This document shows positions 5,340 through 64,000 of a stretch of DNA of 64,000 bases, piece by piece. A program made the position numbers and the translations under genes. Origin of the DNA: a candidate division WOR-3 bacterium (GTDB lineage: Bacteria; Hydrothermota; Tepidihabitantia; SM23-42; JAOAFX01); NCBI GenBank assembly GCA_965649105.1, contig CBFGJP010000001.1:14464-78463 (forward strand), given 5' to 3'. The number at the start of each line of letters is the position of its first letter. Position 1 is the first letter of the stretch. Below the pieces are notes generated by a model. That model worked only from the letters and a program-made list of their open reading frames with translations. It did no database searches and was not told the origin of the DNA.

Positions 5340-5996
5340 TTATTTCTCTTCCCAGCCTTCTTTCCCCACAAGCGGAACAAAGGTACATTCAAAAAGTTCC
5401 TTTCTTGTTATTACCCCTTTATGTTTTTTTATTACATTCAAGGTCTGAAAATATTCGCCACCGATTGGAATCACCAATCTCCCTTTATCCGCCAACTGGT
5501 CAATCAATGCCCTGGGCGTTTCTGGAGCGCCTGCTGTAACAAGTATTCCATCATAAGGTGCATAATCAGGCCAGCCCACACTACCATCACCGATCAAAAA
5601 ATTAATATTATTGAATCCAAGTTCATTAAGAATCTTTCTTGCGCGAAAACTCAATTCAGAAATTCTTTCAATTGTAAAAACCCGATTACACAGTAGCGCA
5701 AGTATTGCAGTCTGATAACCCGAACCAGTGCCAATTTCCAATACCGATTCATTTCCCTTTAATTCCAGCAATTCCGTCATCACTGCCACCATATATGGCT
5801 GGCTTATCGTCTGGCCATTACCAATCGGTAGCGGATAATCATTATACGCCTGATGATAATAAGTTTTATCAACAAACGAATGGCGGGGAACACGCATCAT
5901 TGCATCAATTACCCTTTCATCTTTTACGCCGCGGGCAATAATCTGTTCCTTGACCATCCGCTCCCTTTCCACCCGCCATTCTATAACCTCAATCAC
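5340..5996 (-). CDS. pcm: protein-L-isoaspartate O-methyltransferase
   Basis: SAM-binding motif [16 protein letters not shown]. Conserved PIMT N-terminus. GTG start in the ORF track; the true start may be the internal Met (MVKEQ...). Confidence 0.8.
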
Positions 5997-6286
5997 TTAT
6001 ATAGAATATTTAAAATAAAAGAAAAGTCAAGATAGAGAGGAAATATTTTCAATTTTTATTCTGTAATTGAGCAACTTCTTTGTCACTAAATTGTTAAAAA
6101 GTTCATAGAAGATATTTAATGAGCGATTACTACATTTATAAATTTCTAATTATTGTAAATTTCTATTTAGAGTAAAATCTGATACTACATTTTTAAAAAA
6201 GTTTGTAGATCATTTCTTTCTTAAGAAACAAAGAAAGTATAATTTGGTTTGAGGAAGGGCAGAAGAAAATAGAGTAATACAAGAAA

Positions 6287-6314
6287 TTGACAACGGGATT
6301 TTACTGACTAAAAT
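6287..6314 (+). promoter_or_regulatory. promoter TTGACA-N16-TAAAAT positioned for a leaderless transcript of the 6320 gene
   Basis: TTGACA 6287..6292, TAAAAT 6309..6314. ATG at 6320 is only 5 nt after the -10 box and has no SD. Confidence 0.5.
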
Positions 6315-6319
6315 TAAGT

Positions 6320-6922
6320 ATGGATAGAGAAAAGAGAAGGTTACGCGAAGAGATTTGGCGGGTACTGGAAGAGAAAAAAGTTGCCCGATTTCCATTGCCA
6401 TTAAAGGACCGAATTCCAAATTTTGAAAATTCAGAAAAGGCAGCACTACTGCTTGCAACACTCCAGGAGTGGAAGGATGCAAAAATCATCTTTGCCAATC
6501 CTGACTATGCCCAGAAACCCGTGAGGGAGATTTGCCTTAAACAGGGAAAGACCTTGATTATGGCAACACCCAAACTGAAAGAAGGTTTTATAAAGATTGA
6601 ACCGCAGAAAGTCAAAGGCAAAGAATATGAAGCATCAACGATTGCGGGTGCATTCAAGTATGGGATAAAAATAAAGGAACTCATAAGACCAGATTTAATC
6701 ATCACCGGTTGTGTTGCAGTTGACAAAGAAGGCTGGCGCCTGGGCAAGGGTGGTGGGTATGGGGATAGGGAGATTTCAATGCATCTTGAGAAGTTCGGCA
6801 GAATCCCTGTAGCAACTACGCTCCATAAATTACAGATTGTTGATAAAGTCCCACACAATAGATTTGATACAAGAGTAGATTACATTGTTACACCAGATAG
6901 CATAATAAAAATTCCCAAGTGA
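6320..6922 (+). CDS. 5-formyltetrahydrofolate cyclo-ligase family protein
   Basis: 200 aa. GKGGGYGDR motif (family GxGGGYYD) and overall 5-FCL length. Confidence 0.7.
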   Translation: MDREKRRLREEIWRVLEEKKVARFPLPLKDRIPNFENSEKAALLLATLQEWKDAKIIFANPDYAQKPVREICLKQGKTLIMATPKLKEGFIKIEPQKVKGKEYEASTIAGAFKYGIKIKELIRPDLIITGCVAVDKEGWRLGKGGGYGDREISMHLEKFGRIPVATTLHKLQIVDKVPHNRFDTRVDYIVTPDSIIKIPK

Positions 6923-6964
6923 TTCTTGACAAATATGTTGTAGTAATTATAATTTAAATTAGCG

Positions 6965-50912: not shown

Positions 50913-53315
50913 TTGCAGGAACGATTTACCGAAAGAGTTAGAAAGATATTGCATATTGCCCGTGAAGAGGCGATAAAATTTAGACATAATTTTATAGGAA
51001 CTGAGCATCTTCTTTTGGCAATGATTAAAGAAGGCGAAGGTGTCGGTGCTATGGTTTTGATAAACTTAGGTGTAGAATTAGGAGAATTATTAAAGGCAAT
51101 TGAAAATTCTATAACAATTGGACCGGGTGGTAAGATTGATGTAACCCTGGGTAATGAAGCGCGCCTCTGTCTTAATTATGCAATGGAAGAAGCAAAAAAT
51201 CTTGGTCACACCTATGTAGGTACTGAACATTTATTATTAGGTATCATAAGGACTGAAGGAAGCATTGGTGCCCAGATTCTTAGTTCTATGGGCATTGATT
51301 ATGAAATAGCAAAGAACGAAATTATCCAATTATTAAAACCCGAAGGTGTTGCTGCAGGAAAGGCAAAAGGAAAACAAAGGGGTTCCGCCCTTGATTTATT
51401 TTCAAGAGACCTTACTCAACTCGCCCGCGAAGGTAAACTTGACCCGATAATAGGAAGAGAAAATGAAATTGAACGGGTTATACAGATTCTATCCAGGAGG
51501 AAAAAGAATAATCCAGTACTAATCGGTGAAGCGGGGGTTGGGAAAACCGCAATCGTTGAAGGACTTGCTCAAGATATAGTTTCGGGTAATGTTCCGGATT
51601 CCTTAAAGAATAAACGGGTTCTTGCCCTTGATATGGCATCTATTGTAGCGGGTACCAAGTATCGTGGACAATTTGAAGAAAGACTCAAGGCAGTGATCAA
51701 TGAAGTTACCAATAACAAAGAGATAATACTGTTTATTGACGAGCTTCACACAATCGTTGGCGCAGGTGCAGCAGAAGGTGCGATTGACGCATCAAATATG
51801 CTCAAACCGGCGCTGGCAAGAGGCGAACTCCAGTGCATCGGTGCCACAACCCTTGAGGATTATCGGCGCTATATTGAAAAAAACGGTGCATTGGAACGAA
51901 GATTCCAACCCGTTATCGTTAATCCACCAACGGTTCAGGAAACAATTGGAATATTAAAAGGATTAAAAGAAAATTATGAAAAGCATCATCAGGTGATATA
52001 TTCCGATGAAGCACTTGAGGCTGCCGCATATCTTTCTGATCGATATATTATCGACCGATTCCTACCTGATAAAGCAATCGACGTCATTGATGAAGCCGGT
52101 GCAAAGGTAAAATTATCAAAAATTACTAAAGACCCCAAGGTGGTTGAACTGGAAAATAAACTTCTTGAAATTAAAAAGACAAAAGATAAAATGGTTGCCG
52201 AACAAAAATATGAAGAGGCGGCTGAATTACATAAAGAAGAATTAAAAATCCAAGAGCAGATAAAAAAGAGAAAAGAGCAACAGAGCGAAAGTTCCAAACC
52301 AGTTGTTTGTGAAGAAGATATCGCCTTCGTAGTGTCGCGCTGGACCGGAATTCCGGTATCAAAAATCGAAGAGAAAGAATCGAAACGTTTATTAAAAATG
52401 GAAGAAGAACTTCGAAAAAAGATTGTGGGGCAAGATGAGGCAATTAAAGTCATATCCCGGGCGATAAGACGAAGCCGTGCCGGCGTGAAGGATCCCCGGC
52501 GACCGATTGGCTCTTTTATCTTCCTGGGACCAACCGGTGTCGGAAAAACAGAACTTGCCCGCAGACTGGCAGAGTTTCTTTTCAACGATTTAAATTCCCT
52601 CATTACTCTTGACATGTCGGAATATATGGAGAAATTCAATGTATCAAGACTGATCGGTGCCCCGCCTGGATATGTTGGTTATGAAGAGGGTGGACAATTG
52701 ACCGAAAAAGTAAGGCGCAAACCCTATTCGGTTGTCCTCTTTGATGAAATTGAAAAGGCTCATCCAGATGTGTTTAATATCTTACTTCAGATTCTTGAAG
52801 ATGGGCAACTTACGGATTCTTTTGGCAGAAAGGTGGATTTCAAAAATACTGTAGTAATTATGACATCAAATATCGGAACTGCTGATATAAAGCGGAGTGA
52901 TGGACTTGGATTTGCCAAAGTTGATCCCAATGTATCTTACGATAAAATGAAAGAAAGATTATTGGAAGAAGTCAAAAAACTATTTAATCCCGAATTCCTC
53001 AATCGCGTTGATGAAATAGTGGTATTCAAGCAATTAACGAAAGAAGATATGAAAAAGATTGTAGATATCCTCATTGCCGAGCTTGAAGAAAGATTAGATG
53101 ACAAGAAAATGGTTCTTGAACTTGATGAATCGAGTAAAGAATTACTGGTGGAAGAAGGATTCGACCCTCAATACGGCGCGCGCCCTATTAGAAGAACAAT
53201 AAGAAGATTAATTGAAGACCCGCTTTCCGAAGAAATCTTGAAAGGAAACATAAAAGAAGGTAAGCATATAAAACTCATTCGGGCAGGTGACCGACTGGAA
53301 TTCAAAGTTAAATGA
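50913..53315 (+). CDS. clpC: ATP-dependent Clp protease ATP-binding subunit ClpC
   Basis: 800 aa. Two Clp_N repeats. Two AAA+ modules ([18 protein letters not shown]). Short UVR-like linker. TTG start. Confidence 0.8.
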
Positions 53316-55504
53316 TTTTATCCATAATCTTCGCTTATACAATCGCCAATATAACGGTTGACGCCCAATTCACTAACAAAGAGTTTATTATCCAGACCAG
53401 TGGATTTAAAATCGGAGAACAATTTAAAGAATCAATGATTCCGCAGGCAATAAACAACCTTTTTCGCCTGCGGCTGTTTGATTACATCGCCATTGATACA
53501 ACAATTGTCGCCGATGGAATTTTTATTAAAATAAATGTAACTGAAGCACCTTTTTTAAACGGTGAACCACGATTTATTGGCAACAAAAAAATTAAAAAAG
53601 GTGATTTACTAAAAAAAGTTGATTTAAAAAATGGTCAGGTTCTTACAAAAAAAGCAATCTTTGACGCTCGGCTTAAGATAATTGACCTTTACGCTGAAAA
53701 AAATTTTTATAATACTTCGGTAAAAGATAGTATAGTGCGCGATTCACTCAATAGAGTTGATCTTTACTTTATAATAAATGAGGGTTCGGCATTGAGAATA
53801 AGTAAAATAAAGGTTGAAGGTAATAAAGCGATTTCGGAGAACGCCATAAAAAGAAAAATGCAAAACAAAGAGAAAGGATTTCTGCGCAGTGGAAAACTTG
53901 ATCGTGCTAAACTAAAAGAAGATATAGAGCGAATAAAAATTTTGTATCGCGAGAACGGATTTCTTGATGTTGTTGTTAGTGAACCAGAGATAAAAGTCGT
54001 TGATAATAAACTTATTATAAGTATAAATATAAATGAAAATCAAAGATTTTATGTGGGTGAAACAAAATTCAGCGGTAATAATCTTTTTTCTAATGACCAG
54101 TTGCAAAAGTTATTAATGATCAAACCCGGGGCGGTCTTCAATTTAACCAAGGCACAGAATACATTGCAAAAATTTTATGAGCACTATGCAGACGAAGGAT
54201 ATATATATTGTTCAATAACACCGATTGAAACGATCCGGGATAGTTTTGTTGATATTGAGTATCAAATAAATGAATCAAAACCGGCAAATATAAATCGTAT
54301 CATTATTGCCGGTAACTACCGAACCAGAGAAAAGGTTATCAGAAGGGAAATTGTTACCCTGCCCGGAACGAGGTTTCGACGCTCTCAGGTTATCAGGAGT
54401 ATGCGCGAAGTCTTCAATCTTGGATTCTTTGAAGACATCACCCCCGAGACCGGTAGCCCGGATGACAGTGGTAACATCGACTTAATTTATCGGGTTAAGG
54501 AAAAAGAAGGTGTTGGATCTATCGGGGCAGGGATGGCATATTCTGCCCAAGATAAATTAACTGGTTATATTGAATTAAGCCATCCCAATGTCTTTGGCAG
54601 GGGGCAACGTGTTTATACCAAGTTTGAGATCGGTGGTCGACTAACCAATATCCAATTTGGTTTTACCGAACCCTGGCTTTTTGATACAAGAACCACCGCG
54701 GGATTTGATATTTATTATACCAATAGATTATGGGATTTTTATACAAAAAGGGATATCGGAAGTGCCGCAAATGTTTCATTTCCATTTTTCCTTGATTATA
54801 CAAGACTCAATTATACATTCAGGGTGGAAAGAACGCAAATTCTGGATATCGCAAAAGAATATCAGCCAACCTCAGGATATGATTTGAGAAAAGATACCAT
54901 TCCTAAATGGACGCTGGCAAACAATTATGGAATAACAAGGGACACGCGTGATTTCATATTTAACCCTTCAAGTGGCTCATATATTTCTTTGCAGACCGAA
55001 ATCGCCAAACCCTGGATATTTGCTAATATTGATTATAATAGATTTACCTTTGAAACCCGTTCATATTTTCCAATCTTCTGGAAGTTTGTTTTAATGACGC
55101 GCTTCCGTATGGGCATTGTTACAAGTGTAGATGAGGTTCCATATTACAAAAGGTTCTATGCCGGTGGTACCGGCGAAGATGGCGTAAGGGGATATTCAGA
55201 CCGTTCCCTTTCACCAGTTGAGGATGGCAAAAGGATTGGTGGTAATGCCTTATTTATAAATAATATTGAATTGAAATTAAAATTTTCACAAAGTTTTGCT
55301 ATTCTTGCATTTTACGATATGGGTAATGCATTCGCCTCTTATAAAGACTTCAATCTCTGCGACCTAAAAAGAGGTGCTGGAATAGGGATAAGAGTCGAAA
55401 TACCAATGATGGGTGTTCTGGGGTTTGATTTGGGTTATGGGTTTGACCGTGTGCAACCAGGTTTTGAACCCCATTTCCAGATAAATCCGTTTGGAATGTT
55501 TTAA
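53312..55504 (+). CDS. bamA: outer membrane protein assembly factor BamA
   Basis: 730 aa. POTRA repeats followed by Omp85 beta-barrel, ending ...INPFGMF. Confidence 0.8.
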
Positions 55505-55523
55505 TCATTGTAATGGAGGAGTA

Positions 55524-56480
55524 ATGGAAAAAATAAAATCTATTTTAATAATTGTAATAATACCGTTAATTATTTTTGCCAAGGAGCAAAAGATTGGATT
55601 TGTTGAATCATCAAAAATTTTTAGCCAGTATCAGGCAACAGCTTCTGCCAGTCAAGAATTTAATGAATATGTAAGTGCCTGCCGTGACTCGGCAGCGAAA
55701 TTGCAGTTGACGGTTCAAAATCTAAAAAGTGAATTTGATGCCCAGAAATTGATGTTGAGTGAAGAAGCACGCTTGAAAAAACTTGATGAAATTGAAAAAT
55801 ATATCCAGTTTTATAACCAATATCTTCAAGATGTGTTTGGACCTGGTGGAAAGATTGAGCAAAAGAATGACGAACTGATGGCGCCATTATTAAAAAAAAT
55901 AAATGATGCCATAGCCAAAATTGCGCAACAAGAAGGGTTTGCAATGATAATAGACCTTTCCGAAGATATTTTTTATGCCTCGGCAGAATTAAATATTACC
56001 GATTTAGTGATCAATGAACTAAATCGTGAATATGGTGTTGCTACAACTATTCCCAGTGCAATGAAAAAATACATTGGGATAATGCCCTTCAAAGAAGAAA
56101 ACACTGAAGCAATCAATGAAAATCTTGGAATGAGATGTCAAAATGAATTATATACAGTATTAAACAACTACTCCCAGACATACAATATTGTGACCAAAGC
56201 AACAATCATGGCCGAATTAACTAAAAGGCAGTGGGACTATAAAATGATCGATGAAAATCAGGCACTCCAGATCGCCGGATTTGCTTTGTGTAATTATATT
56301 GTTATGGGGAAAGTGAGTAAGTCCGGTATAAAAATTGATTATACAATCAGTCTGAAAGATGTCAGTTCAAAGGAAGAAATTGGCAGTCGTTCTAATTCAG
56401 TCACTGATGATATAAAATTTTCCGAATCTCTAAAAAACGATTTAATGGGTCTGATTGAAGCATTAAAGAAAAAAGAATAA
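55524..56480 (+). CDS. skp: Skp/OmpH-family periplasmic chaperone fused to a C-terminal TolB-N/CsgG-like domain
   Basis: GGAGG RBS before ATG 55524. Signal peptide. OmpH coiled-coil region (KIGFVESSKIFSQYQ...). Extra about 150-aa C-terminal domain starting YIGIMPFKEEN. Located immediately after bamA. Confidence 0.55.
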   Translation: MEKIKSILIIVIIPLIIFAKEQKIGFVESSKIFSQYQATASASQEFNEYVSACRDSAAKLQLTVQNLKSEFDAQKLMLSEEARLKKLDEIEKYIQFYNQYLQDVFGPGGKIEQKNDELMAPLLKKINDAIAKIAQQEGFAMIIDLSEDIFYASAELNITDLVINELNREYGVATTIPSAMKKYIGIMPFKEENTEAINENLGMRCQNELYTVLNNYSQTYNIVTKATIMAELTKRQWDYKMIDENQALQIAGFALCNYIVMGKVSKSGIKIDYTISLKDVSSKEEIGSRSNSVTDDIKFSESLKNDLMGLIEALKKKE

Positions 56481-56490
56481 CTACCGATAA

Positions 56491-56518
56491 TTGACTAAAA
56501 TCTAAACTTGAATATAAT
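56491..56518 (+). promoter_or_regulatory. promoter TTGACT-N16-TATAAT upstream of tRNA-Arg/tadA
   Basis: TTGACT 56491..56496, TATAAT 56513..56518. Predicted TSS is about 128 nt upstream of the tRNA. Confidence 0.55.
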
Positions 56519-56605
56519 TTGAAAATGATATTTAATAGATTGAGGTTGAGGTGCTGGATTGGTTAATGGGCTTGGTGAATAATCCAGATCCCTAAATCAG
56601 TGACC

Positions 56606-56640
56606 AAAGACCATACCAGCATCCATGCCCAATAACCTTA
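56606..56640. repeat. 35-bp exact direct repeat, copy 1 (10 nt upstream of tRNA-Arg)
   Basis: AAAGACCATACCAGCATCCATGCCCAATAACCTTA is identical to 57303..57337. Flanking similarity extends (TTGAGGTTGAGG block about 65 nt upstream in both copies). Confidence 0.9.
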
Positions 56641-56652
56641 GATTATCTGTGG

Positions 56653-56726
56653 GCGCCCGTAGCTCAACTGGATAGAGCGGCGGACTACGAATCCGCAGGC
56701 TACGTGTTCAAGTCACGTCGGGCGCG
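56653..56726 (+). tRNA. tRNA-Arg (anticodon ACG)
   Basis: Acceptor GCGCCCG/CGGGCGC, D arm GCTC-AACTGGATA-GAGC, anticodon stem GCGGA/TCCGC with loop CTACGAA, T arm ACGTG-TTCAAGT-CACGT, discriminator G. Confidence 0.85.
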
Positions 56727-56759
56727 TGGTAATAAAAAAGACTTTGTGCCTGGGAAAAT

Positions 56760-57227
56760 ATGGTAAATAATGATGAACTTTTTATGGTTGAGGCATTGAA
56801 AGAGGCACAAAAGGCATTTAACGAAGATGAAGTGCCGATTGGTACAGTGGCGGTTTATAAAAATCAAATCATCGGGCGTGGTCATAATCGGACAGAAGCA
56901 CTTCAGGATCCCACTGCCCATGCCGAGATTCTGGCAATCACCGCTGCAGCAATTAGTTTGAAGTCTTGGCGTTTGAACGATGTGGTTATTTACACAACCA
57001 TTGAACCCTGTATAATGTGCGCTGGTGCGTTAATTCTGGCGAGGGTTAAAAAAATAATTTTCGGTGCACGAGATGAAAAATTTGGTGGTTGTGGTTCGGT
57101 TTTCAATATTGTCCAGGAGAAAAAATTGAATCATAGGATTGAGGTAGTTGAAGGTGTTTTAAGAAATGAAGCATTGTCTTTAATGAAAGATTTCTTTAAG
57201 CAAAAACGTAATAAAAAGAAAAAATAG
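56760..57227 (+). CDS. tadA: tRNA-specific adenosine deaminase
   Basis: CDA zinc motifs HAEILAI and PCIMCAGAL. 155 aa. Confidence 0.8.
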   Translation: MVNNDELFMVEALKEAQKAFNEDEVPIGTVAVYKNQIIGRGHNRTEALQDPTAHAEILAITAAAISLKSWRLNDVVIYTTIEPCIMCAGALILARVKKIIFGARDEKFGGCGSVFNIVQEKKLNHRIEVVEGVLRNEALSLMKDFFKQKRNKKKK

Positions 57228-57302
57228 ATACATTAAATTATATAGTTGTTGGGTTGAGGTTAGGAAGCTGGTTGAAGGTTTAAAGCCTAAAAACCTTTGA
57301 AT

Positions 57303-57337
57303 AAAGACCATACCAGCATCCATGCCCAATAACCTTA
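57303..57337. repeat. 35-bp exact direct repeat, copy 2 (175 nt upstream of tRNA-Ser)
   Basis: Identical 35-mer to 56606..56640. Confidence 0.9.
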
Positions 57338-57512
57338 AACCATCTGTTCGGGTGGTTTGCTTGATGCGAAGTTTTTTTCTGGTAGAGCAAAGCCGAAAGA
57401 TTAAGGGTTGATGTATGAAAACAGGTCAACGAGGGGGGATTAAAGACTTCCAAGAACTTTTGGGCTTTGTTTAGCAAAGTGAGTGGAAAAAAGGGGGAAC
57501 CATCCCCCTTTA

Positions 57513-57601
57513 GGAGAGATGGCCGAGTGGACTAAGGCGCGCGACTCGAAATCGCGTATCCGCTTAAAAGCGGGTCGGGGGTTCAAATCCCCCTCTCTCC
57601 G
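57513..57601 (+). tRNA. tRNA-Ser (anticodon CGA), class II with long variable arm
   Basis: Acceptor GGAGAGA/TCTCTCC, 3-bp D stem with 11-nt loop, anticodon stem CGCGA/TCGCG with loop CTCGAAA, 20-nt variable arm, T arm GGGGG-TTCAAAT-CCCCC, discriminator G. Confidence 0.8.
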
Positions 57602-57679
57602 TCTACTCGACTGAATACCATTTTATTTCCACAATTCCATTATTCCAGAATACTAAAATTGTGGATTTGTCATTTCTGC

Positions 57680-57946
57680 TCACACATCTTTGTCAAGGCG
57701 TATTGATATTCTCTCAACCAGATGTTCACAAGCACTAAGGAATTTACTAACTTCTTCCGGATATTTTATCCAGTATATGGTGGACCTGCCTTTCTTTTCG
57801 TAACGCACCAAATTCGCAAGCCGTAATTTTGTCATATGAGAACATACTGCCTGACACATTTGGTAATCGTATCTAAATCCAATCTCTCTTTTTCTAACAA
57901 TAATTTTAATATGCCATAAGAAATTGGATATCCCAAAACACGGCAT
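57680..57946 (-). CDS. ArsR/SmtB-family transcriptional regulator
   Basis: 88 aa. Winged-HTH segment CQAVCSHMTKLRLANLVRYEKKGRSTIY fits the ArsR recognition helix. TTG start. Confidence 0.55.
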   Translation of the reverse strand: MPCFGISNFLWHIKIIVRKREIGFRYDYQMCQAVCSHMTKLRLANLVRYEKKGRSTIYWIKYPEEVSKFLSACEHLVERISIRLDKDV

Positions 57947-58004
57947 ATTATTGAACCACGAAATCTTTTCTCAATAATCTGCATAATTACACCTTCATTC
58001 CATA

Positions 58005-58022
58005 ATTCCACAATACTGGAAT
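58005..58022. promoter_or_regulatory. perfect inverted repeat ATTCCA-N6-TGGAAT overlapping the predicted arsR-family promoter (candidate operator)
   Basis: Lies 59-76 nt upstream of the regulator start and overlaps the -35-like TTGTGG on the minus strand. Confidence 0.4.
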
Positions 58023-58217
58023 AATGTAATTATAGTATAATGAAAAAAAGAATATCTGTCAAGAATTTGTATACAATTATTTATAAAATTAGACTGATTA
58101 TAAAAATTTTATATCCGGAATGGCGGTGTCATATCCTTTTTAGATTTTGTTGAAAAATTAATCTATTCACAATTATATATTATAAATTCTTGATATTAGA
58201 AAATATGGTCTATCTAA

Positions 58218-60200
58218 TCAGAATACATCCAGTGGGTCAACATCAATCTCTAATTTTGATTTAATCAATTTAACCTGTTTTAAAAATTTCAGTCTTCGAT
58301 GTTCAAACTTTAGTGGCGATTTTATTAAAATATAAACACGATAATTGTTGCGTATTTTATAGTAAAAAGATTGGTTTGGTCCAAAAATTTTAATTCCTTT
58401 AATTCCGGTTAGCAAATTATAAATTTTCTTTGCTTCACTCCAGGTGGTTTGTTCATCTTTGCCTGAAAAGCGGATAAGAATTAGTCGCGAAAATGGTGGA
58501 AAATTCAGTTCTCTACGCAATTTCATTTCTTCAGCATAAAATTTTGGATAATTCTGCAACTGACTAAAAAGTATTGAATACTGCTCGGGATGATATGTTT
58601 GTATTAAAACCCTGCCTGGTTTTTCTCCCCGGCCGGCCCTTCCTGCAACCTGGGTTAAAATTTGGAATGTTCTTTCACTGCCTCTAAAATCAGGTAGATT
58701 AAGAATGGTATCTGCATTAACAATACCCACGAATGTGACATTCGGAAAATCAAAGCCTTTTGTAACAAGTTGCGTGCCAAGCAATATCTTAGCCTTTTGC
58801 TCTTCAAATTTCTTCAAAATTGCTTCTGCCTCTCCTCTTTTCCGTGCACTATCGCGATCAAGTCTTAAGATCATTGATTTAAAACTCTCATCATCTAAAC
58901 TAAATTCAGATTTTAGTATCTTTTTAATTATCTCTTCTATGCGCTGCGTCCCAGCACCGCGGTATAACAAAGTAGCCTTACCGCATTTTGGGCAAAGTCT
59001 AAAATAATCAGTCTTATAATCACAGGTATGGCAGGAAAGAAAAGGAACATCCCCTTTCTGAAAGGCACGATGGTATACCAGTGGCAATCTACAATATGGA
59101 CAACGAACAGTGTGACCACAATTTGGACATAATAAATTTGGAGCAAAACCCCGGCGATTCAAAAATAAAATTGCCTGTTCATTTCTTTGGATAATTTCCT
59201 TTATTGACTCCTCAAATCTTTGAGAAATAAATTTTCCACTTTCTTTTTTTAAATCCACAACCTCAACTTCAGGCAAAGGACGGGCATCTATCCTTTCTTT
59301 TAGTGTCAGAAGTTCATACTTTCCAATTCCCGCATTATAATAAGATTCTATCTGAGGTGTAGCACTACCCAAAACAACAACACAATTTTCAATCTTCGCT
59401 CTAACCACAGCAACATCACGGGCATTGTATTTGACTGCCTGCTGATGTTCTTTGTAGGAATGGTCATGCTCTTCATCAACGATGATTATTTTCAAATCCG
59501 GTATGGGGAGAAATATCGAACTCCGGGGTCCAATAATGATTTTATAAATTCCATTTTTAATTCCGTACCATGCATTTCTTCGCTCTTTAGCAGTAAGTGC
59601 TGAATGTATTGTAATTACATCCTTACCAAAGCGTTCGGCAAATCTTTTTAGTAAAAGAGGCGTCATTGATATTTCCGGGACGAGAATAAGTGCCCTGCCG
59701 CCACTTTTCAAAACTTCCGAAATGACTTTTAAATAGACTTCAGTCTTTCCACTCCCCGTTACACCGAAAAGGAGAAAAACCTTAAAGAGATTTTTTTTGA
59801 ATGAATAAAGAATACGATTTATTGCATTATTCTGAGAAAATGTTGGGACGGGTTCCTTTGCCACAATTGGTTGTTCAGATTCTTTTTTTATATATTCAAA
59901 TTTCTTTAAAATCTTGGGAGGAAATGCCTGTTTAAGAACCTCGCCAAGATATGATAAATAATAATACGCAATCCATTTATAGAGATTTACCAATTTTGGT
60001 GAAATAAAATTTGTTTCCACCAATTTATGGACTTTTTTTAAATTGGGCACATCCCTCTTTATATTTGTGCCAACGATTATTCCGTATTTGAATTTTTTCT
60101 TTAAAGGCACGATGACCAGGTCTCCGATATGCAAATCAAGGTCTGTCTCATATGTAAGATAATCAAACTTCGTATTAGGTATCGCAACATCAACAAACAT
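58218..60200 (-). CDS. priA: primosomal protein N' (replication restart helicase)
   Basis: 660 aa. Walker A GVTGSGKTEVYL, DEEH box, Cys-rich zinc-binding region (CPNCGH...CPYC...CHTC...CPKCG). Confidence 0.8.
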   Translation of the reverse strand: MFVDVAIPNTKFDYLTYETDLDLHIGDLVIVPLKKKFKYGIIVGTNIKRDVPNLKKVHKLVETNFISPKLVNLYKWIAYYYLSYLGEVLKQAFPPKILKKFEYIKKESEQPIVAKEPVPTFSQNNAINRILYSFKKNLFKVFLLFGVTGSGKTEVYLKVISEVLKSGGRALILVPEISMTPLLLKRFAERFGKDVITIHSALTAKERRNAWYGIKNGIYKIIIGPRSSIFLPIPDLKIIIVDEEHDHSYKEHQQAVKYNARDVAVVRAKIENCVVVLGSATPQIESYYNAGIGKYELLTLKERIDARPLPEVEVVDLKKESGKFISQRFEESIKEIIQRNEQAILFLNRRGFAPNLLCPNCGHTVRCPYCRLPLVYHRAFQKGDVPFLSCHTCDYKTDYFRLCPKCGKATLLYRGAGTQRIEEIIKKILKSEFSLDDESFKSMILRLDRDSARKRGEAEAILKKFEEQKAKILLGTQLVTKGFDFPNVTFVGIVNADTILNLPDFRGSERTFQILTQVAGRAGRGEKPGRVLIQTYHPEQYSILFSQLQNYPKFYAEEMKLRRELNFPPFSRLILIRFSGKDEQTTWSEAKKIYNLLTGIKGIKIFGPNQSFYYKIRNNYRVYILIKSPLKFEHRRLKFLKQVKLIKSKLEIDVDPLDVF

Positions 60201-60311: not shown

Positions 60312-60848
60312 TTAATTATGCAATACAAAAACTTGATTACCTGGAGATTTGATCGACCAGTTATCTTTGCCCGATCCGATCAAACCATATTCGGTCCATG
60401 GATATATACCTGTGGGAGACCAGCGCCCATAACCGATACAACCAGAATTAATAAGATTTACATAATTTGGTCCTGGTATGTTTGTATTACAGTTATCATT
60501 CTCATTTGCATAATTAAAAATAATGAATTCAGTAATAACCATTTGTTTACCGGAATACGGATTGGTCGGTAATGTACCTAACCGGGTTTGTAGATCTTCG
60601 TCGCCACCCGGAAAATAGTAACCAAATCCTTGCCCTGCTGTGTTAAGATCTGATGGGTAGATCCCATGCTTATCTATTGAAAAAGCATAAACACAAACCT
60701 GTGTAGCATGCATATTTTCTTTTACTGCCGCTTGATGCGCCCTTTCCCTCATTATTATGTAATTTGGAATAGCAATTGCTGCAAGAATACCGATTATTGT
60801 TACAACAACCATTAATTCTATCAGCGTAAAACCCTTTCTCACACACAT
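60312..60848 (-). CDS. type IV pilin / pseudopilin (prepilin-type N-terminal cleavage/methylation domain)
   Basis: Leader MCVRKG followed by FTLIELMVVVTIIGILAAIAIPN (class III signal peptide). 178 aa. Confidence 0.75.
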   Translation of the reverse strand: MCVRKGFTLIELMVVVTIIGILAAIAIPNYIIMRERAHQAAVKENMHATQVCVYAFSIDKHGIYPSDLNTAGQGFGYYFPGGDEDLQTRLGTLPTNPYSGKQMVITEFIIFNYANENDNCNTNIPGPNYVNLINSGCIGYGRWSPTGIYPWTEYGLIGSGKDNWSIKSPGNQVFVLHN

Positions 60849-60856
60849 ATTCCCGT

Positions 60857-61906
60857 CTATAGTTTTTTCTTTTTAATGTAAGATGGTAATATTATCTTAC
60901 CTTTATTTCGATCGTAGATATACGGATTTCCAAATGGATTTTTTGGTATCTCCCGTATAAATTTTTCTTTTACAAGGTCATCAAGTTTATCCGGGTATTT
61001 CCCCTTTGCTGCTTTATATGCCATAATGCGCTGATTGAGATAATTGGCATTCATTTCTAATTCATCCAACAACAAAGTTGTGCTTGACACTATACTATCC
61101 ATTATCAAAATATATTTACCTCCAAATGGTTCTGCCGGAATCTTAGTGAGTAGCCTTGCATTAACAAGTTCCGTTAAACCTTTCGGCAAAACGTCAAATT
61201 TACGCCGGTATTGATGTACAAATCTCTGTAATGAATCAATGTCTTCTTCAATTTGGATATAATATAGGGATTTCAGTGCCGTCTCCTTTCTTTTCTCTGT
61301 CTGGGCATTTTTCAGGACTATCTGCCAAAGATCTTTTGCAAATTTATATTTTTTTGCTTTTCTGAAGGCATGAGCAGCAAAACGGATGGATCTTCCAGAA
61401 AAACCTTCCCTCAAAGCAGAAAGTTTAAAATAACGCCCGGCCTTGTTGAAATCCTTCAATAAAAAATAGTTAATAAATCCAGCGTCAAAAAGTGGTTCCC
61501 ATCTATCAGGACAGTTGGTGATCGCGCGTCTAAGTAATTTAATAGCTTCTGCAGGACTACCAGCATCTTCAGCAATCAAAAGTGCACCAAAACGATATCC
61601 GTTAATAAATAGAGGATCCAATCTTGTAAGTATATCAAAAATATGTGTTAACCATGGATAATTATAATCGGTAAGTGCATGCTGGCCATAATATTGAATT
61701 GCCCTAAGCCAAACAATATTTGAAACAAATATATCAAAATCGCACACTACAATTTTTAAAAATCTTCCTGATGGGAAATACATCATTTCATTAAGAATTT
61801 CCTTCTTAGGTGGATAAATTTGGTCGTACTTAATCTGGAAAAAATGAACTATCATTGGAAAAATGACAATGATCAAAATAGGCACAAAAATCTTCTTAAT
61901 AATCAT
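60857..61906 (-). CDS. membrane-anchored TPR-like protein with two GspG-like C-terminal motifs (pilus/ABC-system accessory protein)
   Basis: N-terminal TM helix without prepilin motif. Central helical-repeat region. Two copies of a pseudopilin-like segment (…LVNARLLTKIPAEPFGGKYI and …LVKEKFIREIPKNPFGNPYIYD, cf. GspG …LP.DPWGNPYQY). 4-nt overlap with upstream permease gene. Confidence 0.45.
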   Translation of the reverse strand: MIIKKIFVPILIIVIFPMIVHFFQIKYDQIYPPKKEILNEMMYFPSGRFLKIVVCDFDIFVSNIVWLRAIQYYGQHALTDYNYPWLTHIFDILTRLDPLFINGYRFGALLIAEDAGSPAEAIKLLRRAITNCPDRWEPLFDAGFINYFLLKDFNKAGRYFKLSALREGFSGRSIRFAAHAFRKAKKYKFAKDLWQIVLKNAQTEKRKETALKSLYYIQIEEDIDSLQRFVHQYRRKFDVLPKGLTELVNARLLTKIPAEPFGGKYILIMDSIVSSTTLLLDELEMNANYLNQRIMAYKAAKGKYPDKLDDLVKEKFIREIPKNPFGNPYIYDRNKGKIILPSYIKKKKL

Positions 61907-62664
61907 AAATCCTTTCTCTCAAAAATAACAATTGCTAAAGAAAGCAGAATAATAGTATAAGCAAGTCCATAGGCGACCGCAAATATTGTAGCATTCAAAT
62001 CCAAAGAAAGGTTATTAGCGATAGCGGCGCGAACATTAAAATAAGAAAGGTTAGGGAGAATGTAGTAAAGCGCCGTAGAGATGTTCTTCAAAATCGGTGA
62101 CTTCGTCAATTCACCCAGAACCAATATATCCGCGGTGAAATGTCCACAAAAATAGATCGCAAATGTAAAAACACCACTACTCATAGGGCTGGAAAATGTA
62201 GAAAAGAGAATCGCAACAGCTGAAACAATTATTATTTCCATAAACTGTAAAAATATTGCAACGATAATATTTGTACTGAATGCCACTTTAAAAACAATTA
62301 AATAAAGAATAAATATGAAACCAAGTATACCTATTATCAAAGATAAGGCAAAAATTATACCCAGATATTTTCCAACAATAAATTGCCACCTTTTGACAGA
62401 TTTAGGGATTATCATATAGATTGTCTTTCGCTGAACTTCATCAAATACCAATCTGGTACTTACAAAAACCGTAATTAGAATACCAATAATTGAAATCATT
62501 GAAAGTCCAAAATCTTTGATTAATCGAACCTCCTCTCCAAATGAAAGGGGAGCAATTAATTTAACACTCATTATTGAAATTAGCCCTAACACCAATATAA
62601 TCAGAAGAACTTTGTCTCGAATTACCTCACGCATTGTATTAATAGAAACAGCAATTGTTTTCAT
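61903..62664 (-). CDS. ABC-2 family transporter permease
   Basis: 253 aa, 6 TM helices, ABC-2 topology. Overlaps the ATPase gene by 4 nt. Confidence 0.65.
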   Translation of the reverse strand: MKTIAVSINTMREVIRDKVLLIILVLGLISIMSVKLIAPLSFGEEVRLIKDFGLSMISIIGILITVFVSTRLVFDEVQRKTIYMIIPKSVKRWQFIVGKYLGIIFALSLIIGILGFIFILYLIVFKVAFSTNIIVAIFLQFMEIIIVSAVAILFSTFSSPMSSGVFTFAIYFCGHFTADILVLGELTKSPILKNISTALYYILPNLSYFNVRAAIANNLSLDLNATIFAVAYGLAYTIILLSLAIVIFERKDL

Positions 62665-63584
62665 TTTTTATGTCCAGAAATTGATACAAAATAGTCTTCT
62701 AAAGTTTTGGTTTCCGGGGCCAAACTGATTATGGTGCCATTATTGTCCAAAATTGTTTTCATCGCTTCATTGCAGTCATTAATATTATTGAAGACAAGTT
62801 TTATAGAATCAGAAAGTTCTACTATTTCGATGAGATTATGTATTCTGGAAAGAACATCTTGATTAACATTTTTGGCTTTGATAATATACAAACCTGCATC
62901 CGGTTTCAGAAGATCATCAATGCTACCTTCTCTGACAAGGTGGCCAGAAATTATTATTCCTACCCGGTCACAAACTTCTTCGACATCAGACAGTATATGA
63001 GTTGAAAAAAATATGGTTTTCCCCTGTTTTTTGAGATTAGACATTATTGCTTTCACATCCTTTCTGCCGATTGGATCAAGCCCTTCCATTGGTTCATCAA
63101 GAATAAGCAACGAAGGATCATTAATCAATGCCTGCGCAATACCAAGTCTCTGAAGCATGCCTTTAGAATAAGTTCTAATTTTCATGTTACTAGCACTTTC
63201 TAAACCAACCAGAGACAATAGATTAGGTATACGTTTATGTAATACCTTAATGGAAATTTCAAAAATATGTCCGCAGAATTCTAAAAATTCATATCCAGTG
63301 ATATGAGAATAAAAACTTGGATTTTCGGGTAAATAACCTACTTGTTTCATTGCAAGTATGTTTGGTAACTTAATACCATTTATATAAACATCGCCCGAAT
63401 CTGGAAAAAGCAAACTGGTCAGGATTTTTATTGTTGTCGTTTTTCCTGCTCCATTCGGTCCAAGAAATCCATATATCTCACCAGACTTTACTGATAAACT
63501 AACATTGTTCAAGGCATTCTTCTTTTTGAGGAGAAAACCCGTTTTATAGTTTTTTGTCACTTTTAATATTTCTATTGCATTCAT
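62661..63584 (-). CDS. ABC transporter ATP-binding protein (ABC-2 subfamily)
   Basis: Walker A GPNGAGKTT, signature YSKGMLQR, Walker B LLILDEP. 307 aa with C-terminal extension. Confidence 0.75.
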   Translation of the reverse strand: MNAIEILKVTKNYKTGFLLKKKNALNNVSLSVKSGEIYGFLGPNGAGKTTTIKILTSLLFPDSGDVYINGIKLPNILAMKQVGYLPENPSFYSHITGYEFLEFCGHIFEISIKVLHKRIPNLLSLVGLESASNMKIRTYSKGMLQRLGIAQALINDPSLLILDEPMEGLDPIGRKDVKAIMSNLKKQGKTIFFSTHILSDVEEVCDRVGIIISGHLVREGSIDDLLKPDAGLYIIKAKNVNQDVLSRIHNLIEIVELSDSIKLVFNNINDCNEAMKTILDNNGTIISLAPETKTLEDYFVSISGHKK

Positions 63585-63595
63585 ATTGATAGAAT

Positions 63596-63633
63596 AAAGG
63601 GACCTTTATATACGCGTATATAAAGGTCCCTTT
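63596..63633. terminator. perfect 38-bp palindrome (19-bp arms) between pilin paralog and ABC operon; terminator and/or operator
   Basis: AAAGGGACCTTTATATACG|CGTATATAAAGGTCCCTTT, flanked by T/A tracts on both sides. Confidence 0.6.
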
Positions 63634-63656: not shown

Positions 63657-64000
63657 CTAATTGTGCAGAACGAGAATGCTGCTACCACCTCTTAAAGTGA
63701 GAAAGTCTTTCCTTGAACCAACGACACCCCACTCAGTCCAAGGCCACGCACCGGAGGTTGAATAGGTTCCGTACCTTATAAGACCTGCTCCACCAAGGTT
63801 TGCGTCATTTGCTCCGCCGATTGATTGGTCACTATTGTCGCCGGCATTGGCGTACACATGTATAATAAAATCAGCTACTTGCATTGGTGCACCCGTATAT
63901 GGATTATTGGGTAGTTGTCCAAGTACTGTTTGCAAATCTTCGTCACCACCAGGGAAATAATAACCAAAGCCCTCTCCAGAAGTATTCACATCTGTTGGAT
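63657..64000 (-). CDS. type IV pilin paralog, C-terminal part (N-terminus beyond window end)
   Basis: Aligns with residues about 70-178 of the 60312..60848 pilin (GEGFGYYFPGGDEDLQT…LVLHN). No prepilin leader within window, so the gene must start past 64000. Confidence 0.65.
   Translation of the reverse strand, partial: PTDVNTSGEGFGYYFPGGDEDLQTVLGQLPNNPYTGAPMQVADFIIHVYANAGDNSDQSIGGANDANLGGAGLIRYGTYSTSGAWPWTEWGVVGSRKDFLTLRGGSSILVLHN

Follow-up and report, generated by a model that had tools for sequence, protein, structure and literature searches.

A PilG-like partner of a pilin-associated ABC transporter in a WOR-3 bacterium carries two pilin-head-like modules

Results

An overlapping gene trio flanked by pilin genes

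We analyzed a 64,000-nucleotide stretch of DNA from a candidate division WOR-3 bacterium (GenBank assembly GCA_965649105.1, contig CBFGJP010000001.1, positions 14,464 to 78,463; the whole stretch is hereafter called the window), focusing on a gene at window positions 60857..61906. Its 349-codon open reading frame (ORF) encodes a PilG-like accessory protein, referred to below as the target, which is predicted to be bitopic and consists of an N-terminal anchor, a domain resembling tetratricopeptide repeats (TPR), and two modules that resemble the head domain of a pilin. All features of the cassette described here lie on the reverse strand. The target is the third gene of an overlapping trio, in the order ATPase, permease, target. 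The ATP-binding cassette (ABC) transporter ATPase is a PilH-like protein of 307 amino acids (62661..63584; Pfam ABC_tran, E=1e-29), and the ABC-2 type permease is PilI-like and has 253 amino acids (61903..62664; Pfam ABC2_membrane_2, E=8e-10). The permease start overlaps the ATPase stop and the target start overlaps the permease stop (ATGA), each by 4 nucleotides.

Paralogous pilin genes stand on both sides of this trio, and the cassette contains no glycosyltransferase. A prepilin gene of 178 codons lies downstream (60312..60848; Pfam N_methyl, E=5e-9), its start 8 nucleotides from the target stop. Its upstream paralog is represented by its C-terminal part and runs past the end of the window (63657..64000).

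A membrane anchor, a conserved linker and a helical-repeat body

An AlphaFold2 model of the target, built on 24 homologs, had a mean predicted local distance difference test score (pLDDT) of 88. It begins with a helix at residues 2-30 (61817..61903) that we assign as the membrane anchor; residues 1-28 form the sole strongly hydrophobic stretch of the protein. The N-terminus reads MIIKKIFVPILII and has no prepilin G-F-T-L-I-E motif, and the models N_methyl (Pfam) and IV_pilin_GFxxxE (NCBIfam) both miss the target, yet match the neighboring downstream pilin (the latter with E=1e-9). There is no lipobox, and no cysteine occurs in the first 50 residues. A second membrane span at residues 49-70 was considered and ruled out by the conserved acidic residues found there in the target and its relatives. 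Over 95 family members, the net charge is +1.9 on the N-side of the anchor and +0.7 on its C-side. This amounts to a mild positive-inside bias, and it mildly favors an N-in topology in which the body of the protein would be periplasmic.

The stretch directly behind the anchor, E-M-M-Y-F-P-S-G (residues 40-47; 61766..61789), is better conserved than any other motif of the family, with near-invariant alignment columns at E40, Y43, F44, P45, S46, and G47. It is held within a linker, residues 36-57, that is the only low-confidence segment of the model (pLDDT <50). Because the motif is conserved yet has no predicted structure, we infer that it is an interface, most simply with the permease.

The linker leads into a TPR-like helical-repeat domain (residues 57-237; 61196..61738), modeled as a stack of paired helices, whose last long helix (residues 204-237) doubles as the helix of the first pilin-head-like module. 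Foldseek searches with the full-length model returned TPR proteins only (a consensus TPR, SPY, OGT, and MamA; E=8e-5 to 1e-3). The Pfam model TPR_14 matches the target weakly (E=1.1e-3), and MamA, also a TPR protein, was the best hit, again weak (E=0.06), when the whole target was searched as a single sequence against PDB sequences. In ten diverse family members, no Pfam or NCBIfam model covers this core domain. Across the family, the core can be written as E-x-x-Y-x-P-x-G ... W-L-R-A-I-Q-Y-Y-G ... L-D-P-x-F.

Two tandem modules related to the GspG pseudopilin head

Toward the C-terminus, the model has a unit of four elements (a long helix, a short helix, a loop, and a beta-hairpin) that occurs twice, at residues 204-275 and again at 276-340. 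These two units correspond to two tandem modules of about 60 amino acids each: module 1 at residues 217-277 (61076..61258) and module 2 at residues 283-338 (60893..61060). Module 1 consists of a helix, an L-x-E-L-V turn, an I-P-A-E-P-F-G-G-K-Y loop, and a beta-hairpin (strands 265-268 and 272-275). Module 2 likewise has a helix, followed by Y-P-D-K-L-D-D-L-V, I-P-K-N-P-F-G-N-P-Y-I-Y, and a beta-hairpin. Their motif segments are KIPAEPFGGKYI (residues 255-266; window 61109-61144) and EIPKNPFGNPYIYD (residues 319-332; window 60911-60952). Duplication was tested with a hidden Markov model (HMM) built from 56 one-module homologs only. Since this HMM detects both copies, module 1 with E=1.7e-20 and module 2 with E=3.2e-17, the tandem duplication is real.

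Relationship of the modules to the head of the pseudopilin GspG was evident in several searches. The Pfam family for GspG-type proteins, T2SSG, matches residues 291-333 of the target (E=6.5e-4); the score of 20.2 bits falls just short of the 21-bit cut-off. The model also matches 17 of 50 homologous modules taken singly (E<=0.1; best 9.1e-7). When 50 non-redundant module copies were taken from relatives and aligned, and the resulting profile was compared with the PDB, the top eight matches were all GspG structures (E=2.9e-6 to 2.1e-3). The alignment to GspG pairs the helix D-i-x-x-L-x-x-A-l-D-x-Y-r-x-d-x-x-r-Y-P and the loop G-y-I-x-x-l-P-x-D-P-W-G-x-x-Y, with its P-x-x-P-x-G core; GspG has about 12 residues more than the modules between the helix and the loop. 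The C-terminal part was also modeled separately, since the full-length Foldseek search had given TPR proteins only, and Foldseek of this region ranked the same GspG proteins first, with weak E-values (>0.4). The modules show the arrangement typical of a pilin head, in which a long helix packs against an antiparallel beta-sheet. Compared with the heads of the cassette's own pilins, equivalent positions align (hhalign E=1e-4, probability 58%), a result that is suggestive but not conclusive.

Together, these results indicate that each module is a pared-down relative of the GspG pseudopilin head. What remains in each is the C-terminal half of the pilin helix together with the alpha-beta loop and a single beta-hairpin; the hydrophobic polymerization helix, the third strand, and the calcium loop are absent. 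A first-pass annotation of this DNA had described the protein as carrying two tandem GspG-like motifs behind an uncleaved-type transmembrane anchor and a helical-repeat middle, with no prepilin N-terminus. The models and profiles agree with it on each of these points, and the similarity to pseudopilin domains that it predicted was found in profile and structure searches alike.

The family is always linked to an ABC pair and often to pilins

Our searches recovered 55-105 homologs of the target. They fall into length classes of about 350, 298, and 237 residues, which correspond to proteins with two modules, one module, and none; among 84 genomic copies, these architectures occur 14, 44, and 26 times, respectively. 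Scanning one genome per species revealed relatives in 182 species, the best 80 of which belong to WOR-3, Cloacimonadota, Gemmatimonadota, Eisenbacteria, TA06, Edwardsbacteria, and Nitrospirae. Enough flanking DNA was present at 59 loci for their neighborhoods to be counted. An ABC ATPase and an ABC-2 permease adjoin the homolog in all 59, so that the linkage is obligate in this sample. Linkage to pilins is frequent: 42 of the 59 loci have a same-strand ORF with a prepilin motif within 4.5 kb of the homolog. In most WOR-3 loci, as in the window, the trio is flanked by pilins only and no glycosyltransferase is present.

The locus of a 55%-identical relative (L001) carries a five-gene cassette of the same makeup, in which both flanking genes carry N_methyl. 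At that locus (5668-6960), and also at L002, a PilR-type sigma-54-dependent response regulator is encoded about 750 bp upstream of the first cassette pilin gene; no PilS-like kinase was called adjacent to this regulator at L001.

Distant homologs lie within complete type IVa pilus clusters

More distant proteins are matched by a whole-family profile (E=5e-29 and lower), and these are encoded in complete type IVa pilus clusters. One such member (P0104; profile E=5e-29) belongs to a Bacteriovorax-like cluster (L084) with the order pilB-pilT-pilC-pilA-[homolog]-ATPase-permease-pilD-pilMNOPQ, which agrees over 20 genes with the Bacteriovorax marinus SJ cluster of Sharma et al. 2018. In the latter, the gene between PilA and PilH is labeled PilG and described as a 'putative secreted protein, no domain' (Table S3, PMC6060248); P0104 is its positional ortholog. 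The window ATPase and its L084 counterpart share 39% identity over their full length, and the permeases share 29%. The PilG-like gene of L084 (9001-9822) runs against the 13 other pil genes that surround it, all of which are on the other strand.

Two further arrangements were seen. Nitrospirae have pilin-[homolog]-ATPase-permease, which is the gene order of the Myxococcus xanthus operon pilA-pilG-pilH-pilI (PMC3546991). In Bradymonadia (Myxococcota) the order is pilB-pilT-x-pilC-pilS-pilR-pilA-pilA-[homolog], followed by three genes and then the ATPase-permease pair. The three genes at this locus (L085, 9888-16385) encode an epimerase, an LPG_synthase_TM protein, and a family-2 glycosyltransferase, and the ABC pair is followed by a Toluene_X outer-membrane channel, a gene content that hints at a substrate of lipid or sugar nature in this lineage. 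Word-indexed searches for homologs extended to Bradymonadia and other Myxococcota, with no Myxococcus homolog among the matches.

The cassette pilins and the surrounding region

The N-terminal part of the downstream pilin matches the NCBIfam models PilA_Myxo and GspG in addition to IV_pilin_GFxxxE, and an alignment of cassette pilins matches geopilin, M. xanthus PilA, and PulG via the N-terminal helix. The translations of both flanking pilins have GFGYYFPGGDEDLQT..LP.NPY.G...VLHN in common. The segments G-F-G-Y-Y-F-P-G-G-D-E-D-L-Q-T and L-P-x-N-P-Y-x-G and the C-terminal V-L-H-N of these two proteins recur in the cassette pilins of many WOR-3 relatives. For this reason the cassette pilins seem to form a distinct pilin subfamily coupled to the ABC cassette.

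The 72 nucleotides that separate the upstream pilin gene from the ATPase gene include a hairpin of 17 perfectly matched base pairs that ends in a U-rich tail (63596..63633), supported by sequence and RNA folding (-25.6 kcal/mol, z=-5.8; none of 200 shuffles was equally good). It was found by reading the sequence, a consensus terminator scan having overlooked it. The element is probably a terminator or attenuator acting after the upstream pilin gene; such elements are often present behind major pilin genes.

By the look of their translations alone, the genes next to the cassette (50913-60200) are housekeeping envelope and replication genes. They encode a ClpC-like ATPase, a BamA-like Omp85 protein whose gene overlaps the ClpC-like gene by 4 nucleotides, a Skp/OmpH-like protein, a TadA-like deaminase, and PriA.

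Discussion

We favor, with a probability of roughly 0.6, the view that the target is a PilG-type accessory third subunit of a pilus-associated PilH/PilI-type ABC-2 transporter, in a family where some lineages have gained one or two pilin-head modules. The first-pass annotation had proposed an adaptor between an ABC transporter and a pilus, and the genomic contexts bear out both ends of that link: the overlapping reading frames and the ABC pair adjoining every homolog whose neighborhood was counted tie the protein to the transporter, and the flanking pilin genes, together with the distant homologs inside full type IVa pilus clusters, tie it to pili. The adaptor idea is therefore reasonable and has strong support from context, and the modules may mimic pilin and bridge the transporter to the pilus physically.

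How such a system might work can be sketched from the predicted anatomy. The target would be held in the inner membrane by its single N-terminal helix, with the E-M-M-Y-F-P-S-G segment contacting the permease and with the TPR-like scaffold and its two truncated GspG-type heads projecting into the periplasm. ATP-driven motion of the ATPase-permease pair would be passed to this periplasmic subunit, a step that we propose because ABC-2 pairs of the same family commonly use a dedicated extracytoplasmic partner. The pilin-like heads could dock on the globular domains of pilins, or on the pilin-binding part of the assembly platform, and the transporter could thereby work on pilin that is embedded in the membrane, either ahead of assembly or while it proceeds. 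Complex formation among the three proteins, binding of pilin, and this direction of action are all presumed in the scheme.

A more specific version of the scheme, which we regard as quite unlikely, would make the PilH/PilI/PilG-type transporter a second, ABC-powered machine for handling pilins. The modules would grip a membrane-embedded pilin by its globular part, as a non-polymerizable neighbor subunit might, while the ABC-2 pair would lift or reinsert the hydrophobic helix of that pilin. If this were true, the transporter would be a pilin extractor or chaperone working beside the PilB/PilT motors, and the modules would be the fossil of a substrate captured by its own transporter.

Several observations weigh against assigning the target to a PilG-type, pilin-directed role. 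In 17 of the 59 loci a nearby pilin gene is missing, and a test for the expected correlation between module number and pilin adjacency revealed none. Within the 64-kb window there is no pilB, pilT, pilC, pilD, or pilM-Q, so the cassette is detached from the pilus machinery. Foldseek E-values for the module region are weak, as noted above, and the modules are minimal, with a single hairpin, so that a pilin-like surface is not guaranteed. The target is probably the counterpart of M. xanthus PilG, on the strength of transitive homology, synteny, and an assignment made in another paper. Lastly, a profile of the Myxococcota-like branch detects 2,086 cluster representatives (clusters at 50% identity) at E<=0.001, and the pilin-like module occurs in none of the best 150. 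Since that branch does without them, the modules are not essential to the core function and must be an add-on that strengthens or specializes an interaction; the best-supported reading is that one or two were acquired in the WOR-3/Nitrospirae/Gemmatimonadota part of the family.

Three other explanations have to be weighed. The trio might export a surface polysaccharide or glycolipid, with the accessory protein aiding export, the pilins being neighbors only through co-regulation of pili and matrix, and the modules serving as a generic periplasmic binding domain that makes no contact with pilin. Substrates of ABC-2 permeases are typically lipid-linked or amphipathic, and the loci that have no pilin gene nearby fit such a role, as do the sugar-modifying genes of Bradymonadia, where the epimerase, the lysyl-phosphatidylglycerol-synthase-like membrane protein, and the family-2 glycosyltransferase part the homolog from the ABC pair and the Toluene_X channel follows. 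Genes GSU1498-1508 of Geobacter sulfurreducens, which lie directly downstream of the pilin genes GSU1496/1497, provide a possible parallel. They are described as the extracellular anchoring polysaccharide (xap) cluster, in which both the making of polysaccharide and growth on electrodes depend on the ABC ATPase GSU1501 (xapD) (PMC3495685, PMC5585712). The window cassette and most WOR-3 loci, however, have no glycosyltransferase and only pilins around the trio, a fold derived from pilin would be an odd choice for binding glycans, and M. xanthus pilGHI mutants are without pili (PMC3724824). We consider export of this kind unlikely.

We give far less credence to the possibility that the target is a TPR pilotin of the PilF/PilW/Tgl type, aiding the outer-membrane assembly of the secretin PilQ. 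Its TPR-like nature and the pilin genes nearby would fit such a pilotin, but a transmembrane anchor takes the place of the lipobox, and an NCBIfam scan at E<=1 gave three weak matches, none to a pilotin family. Moreover, the family always adjoins an ABC pair and not pilQ, and the Bacteriovorax-like cluster has a separate TPR protein beside its secretin gene. Finally, coincidence would mean that an ordinary TPR protein happens to contain a short proline/glycine motif like that of GspG, an explanation that is scarcely credible. A single-sequence Pfam score just under its cut-off and the high Foldseek E-values would suit it; the exclusively GspG matches at the top of the module-profile search argue against it.

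The assignment to a PilG-type subunit bears on an old question. The need of PilG, PilH, and PilI for Myxococcus type IV pili has reportedly been known since 1998, from work by Wu and colleagues, and to our knowledge the job of these three proteins has never been explained, the accessory protein having no annotated domain. In M. xanthus, deletion of pilG, pilH, or pilI abolishes pili and social motility (PMC3724824), and PilGHI is classified as TCDB 3.A.1.144.5, 'necessary for pilus assembly and PilA export' (PMC3924187). The accessory protein appears here as a member of a large family that spans many phyla and is always tied to an ABC pair, and the truncated pilin heads present in several deep-branching lineages point to a pilin, or a pilin-binding site, as the contact of the periplasmic subunit. 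The function of PilGHI thereby becomes more directly testable by binding and deletion experiments. The target is a rare case of a pilin head domain outside a pilin, and we found no earlier report in the literature of pilin-like domains in the partners of ABC transporters. It represents a new architecture within a system that is genetically known and mechanistically obscure, and should be moderately surprising to a pilus specialist.

Comparison with known systems

In contrast to GspG, PulG, and EpsG (Pfam PF08334, T2SSG), the target has neither a prepilin leader nor the hydrophobic half of the N-terminal helix, and its modules lack the third strand and the C-terminal calcium-binding loop and have an alpha-beta loop that is shorter by about 12 residues. 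Because the two modules follow one another in a single chain, C-terminal to a TPR domain, the protein cannot polymerize as a pilin does. Clostridioides difficile PilJ (PDB 4ixj) also has two pilin-like domains; as a genuine pilin it bears a prepilin leader and becomes part of pili, and sequence identity is only 10-12%.

NosD-NosF-NosY and GldA-GldF-GldG have permeases of the same Pfam family (ABC2_membrane_2) as that of the window. In both, an ABC-2 pair works through a dedicated extracytoplasmic partner, NosD with NosFY and GldG with GldAF. Pfam and NCBIfam searches at E<=1 gave no match of the NosD or GldG models to the target. DrrA and GldA subfamily models (NCBIfam) match the window ATPase below their cut-offs. 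The genomic partners of the trio also differ, being pilins instead of nitrous-oxide reductase or gliding genes.

A close parallel is M. xanthus PilG (UniProt O30384, MXAN_5782), of the PilGHI system (MXAN_5782-5780). Like the target, it is encoded by a third gene that belongs to no known Pfam family and shares an operon, beside the major pilin gene, with an ABC ATPase and an ABC2_membrane_2 permease. Compared with pilA-pilG-pilH-pilI, the window cassette has the order pilin-ATPase-permease-accessory-pilin and stands apart from other pilus genes, and the target bears two pilin-head-like modules that are not found in the Myxococcota-like branch. Members of the target family nevertheless hold the pilG position in the pilus loci of Bacteriovorax-like bacteria, Bradymonadia, and Nitrospirae.
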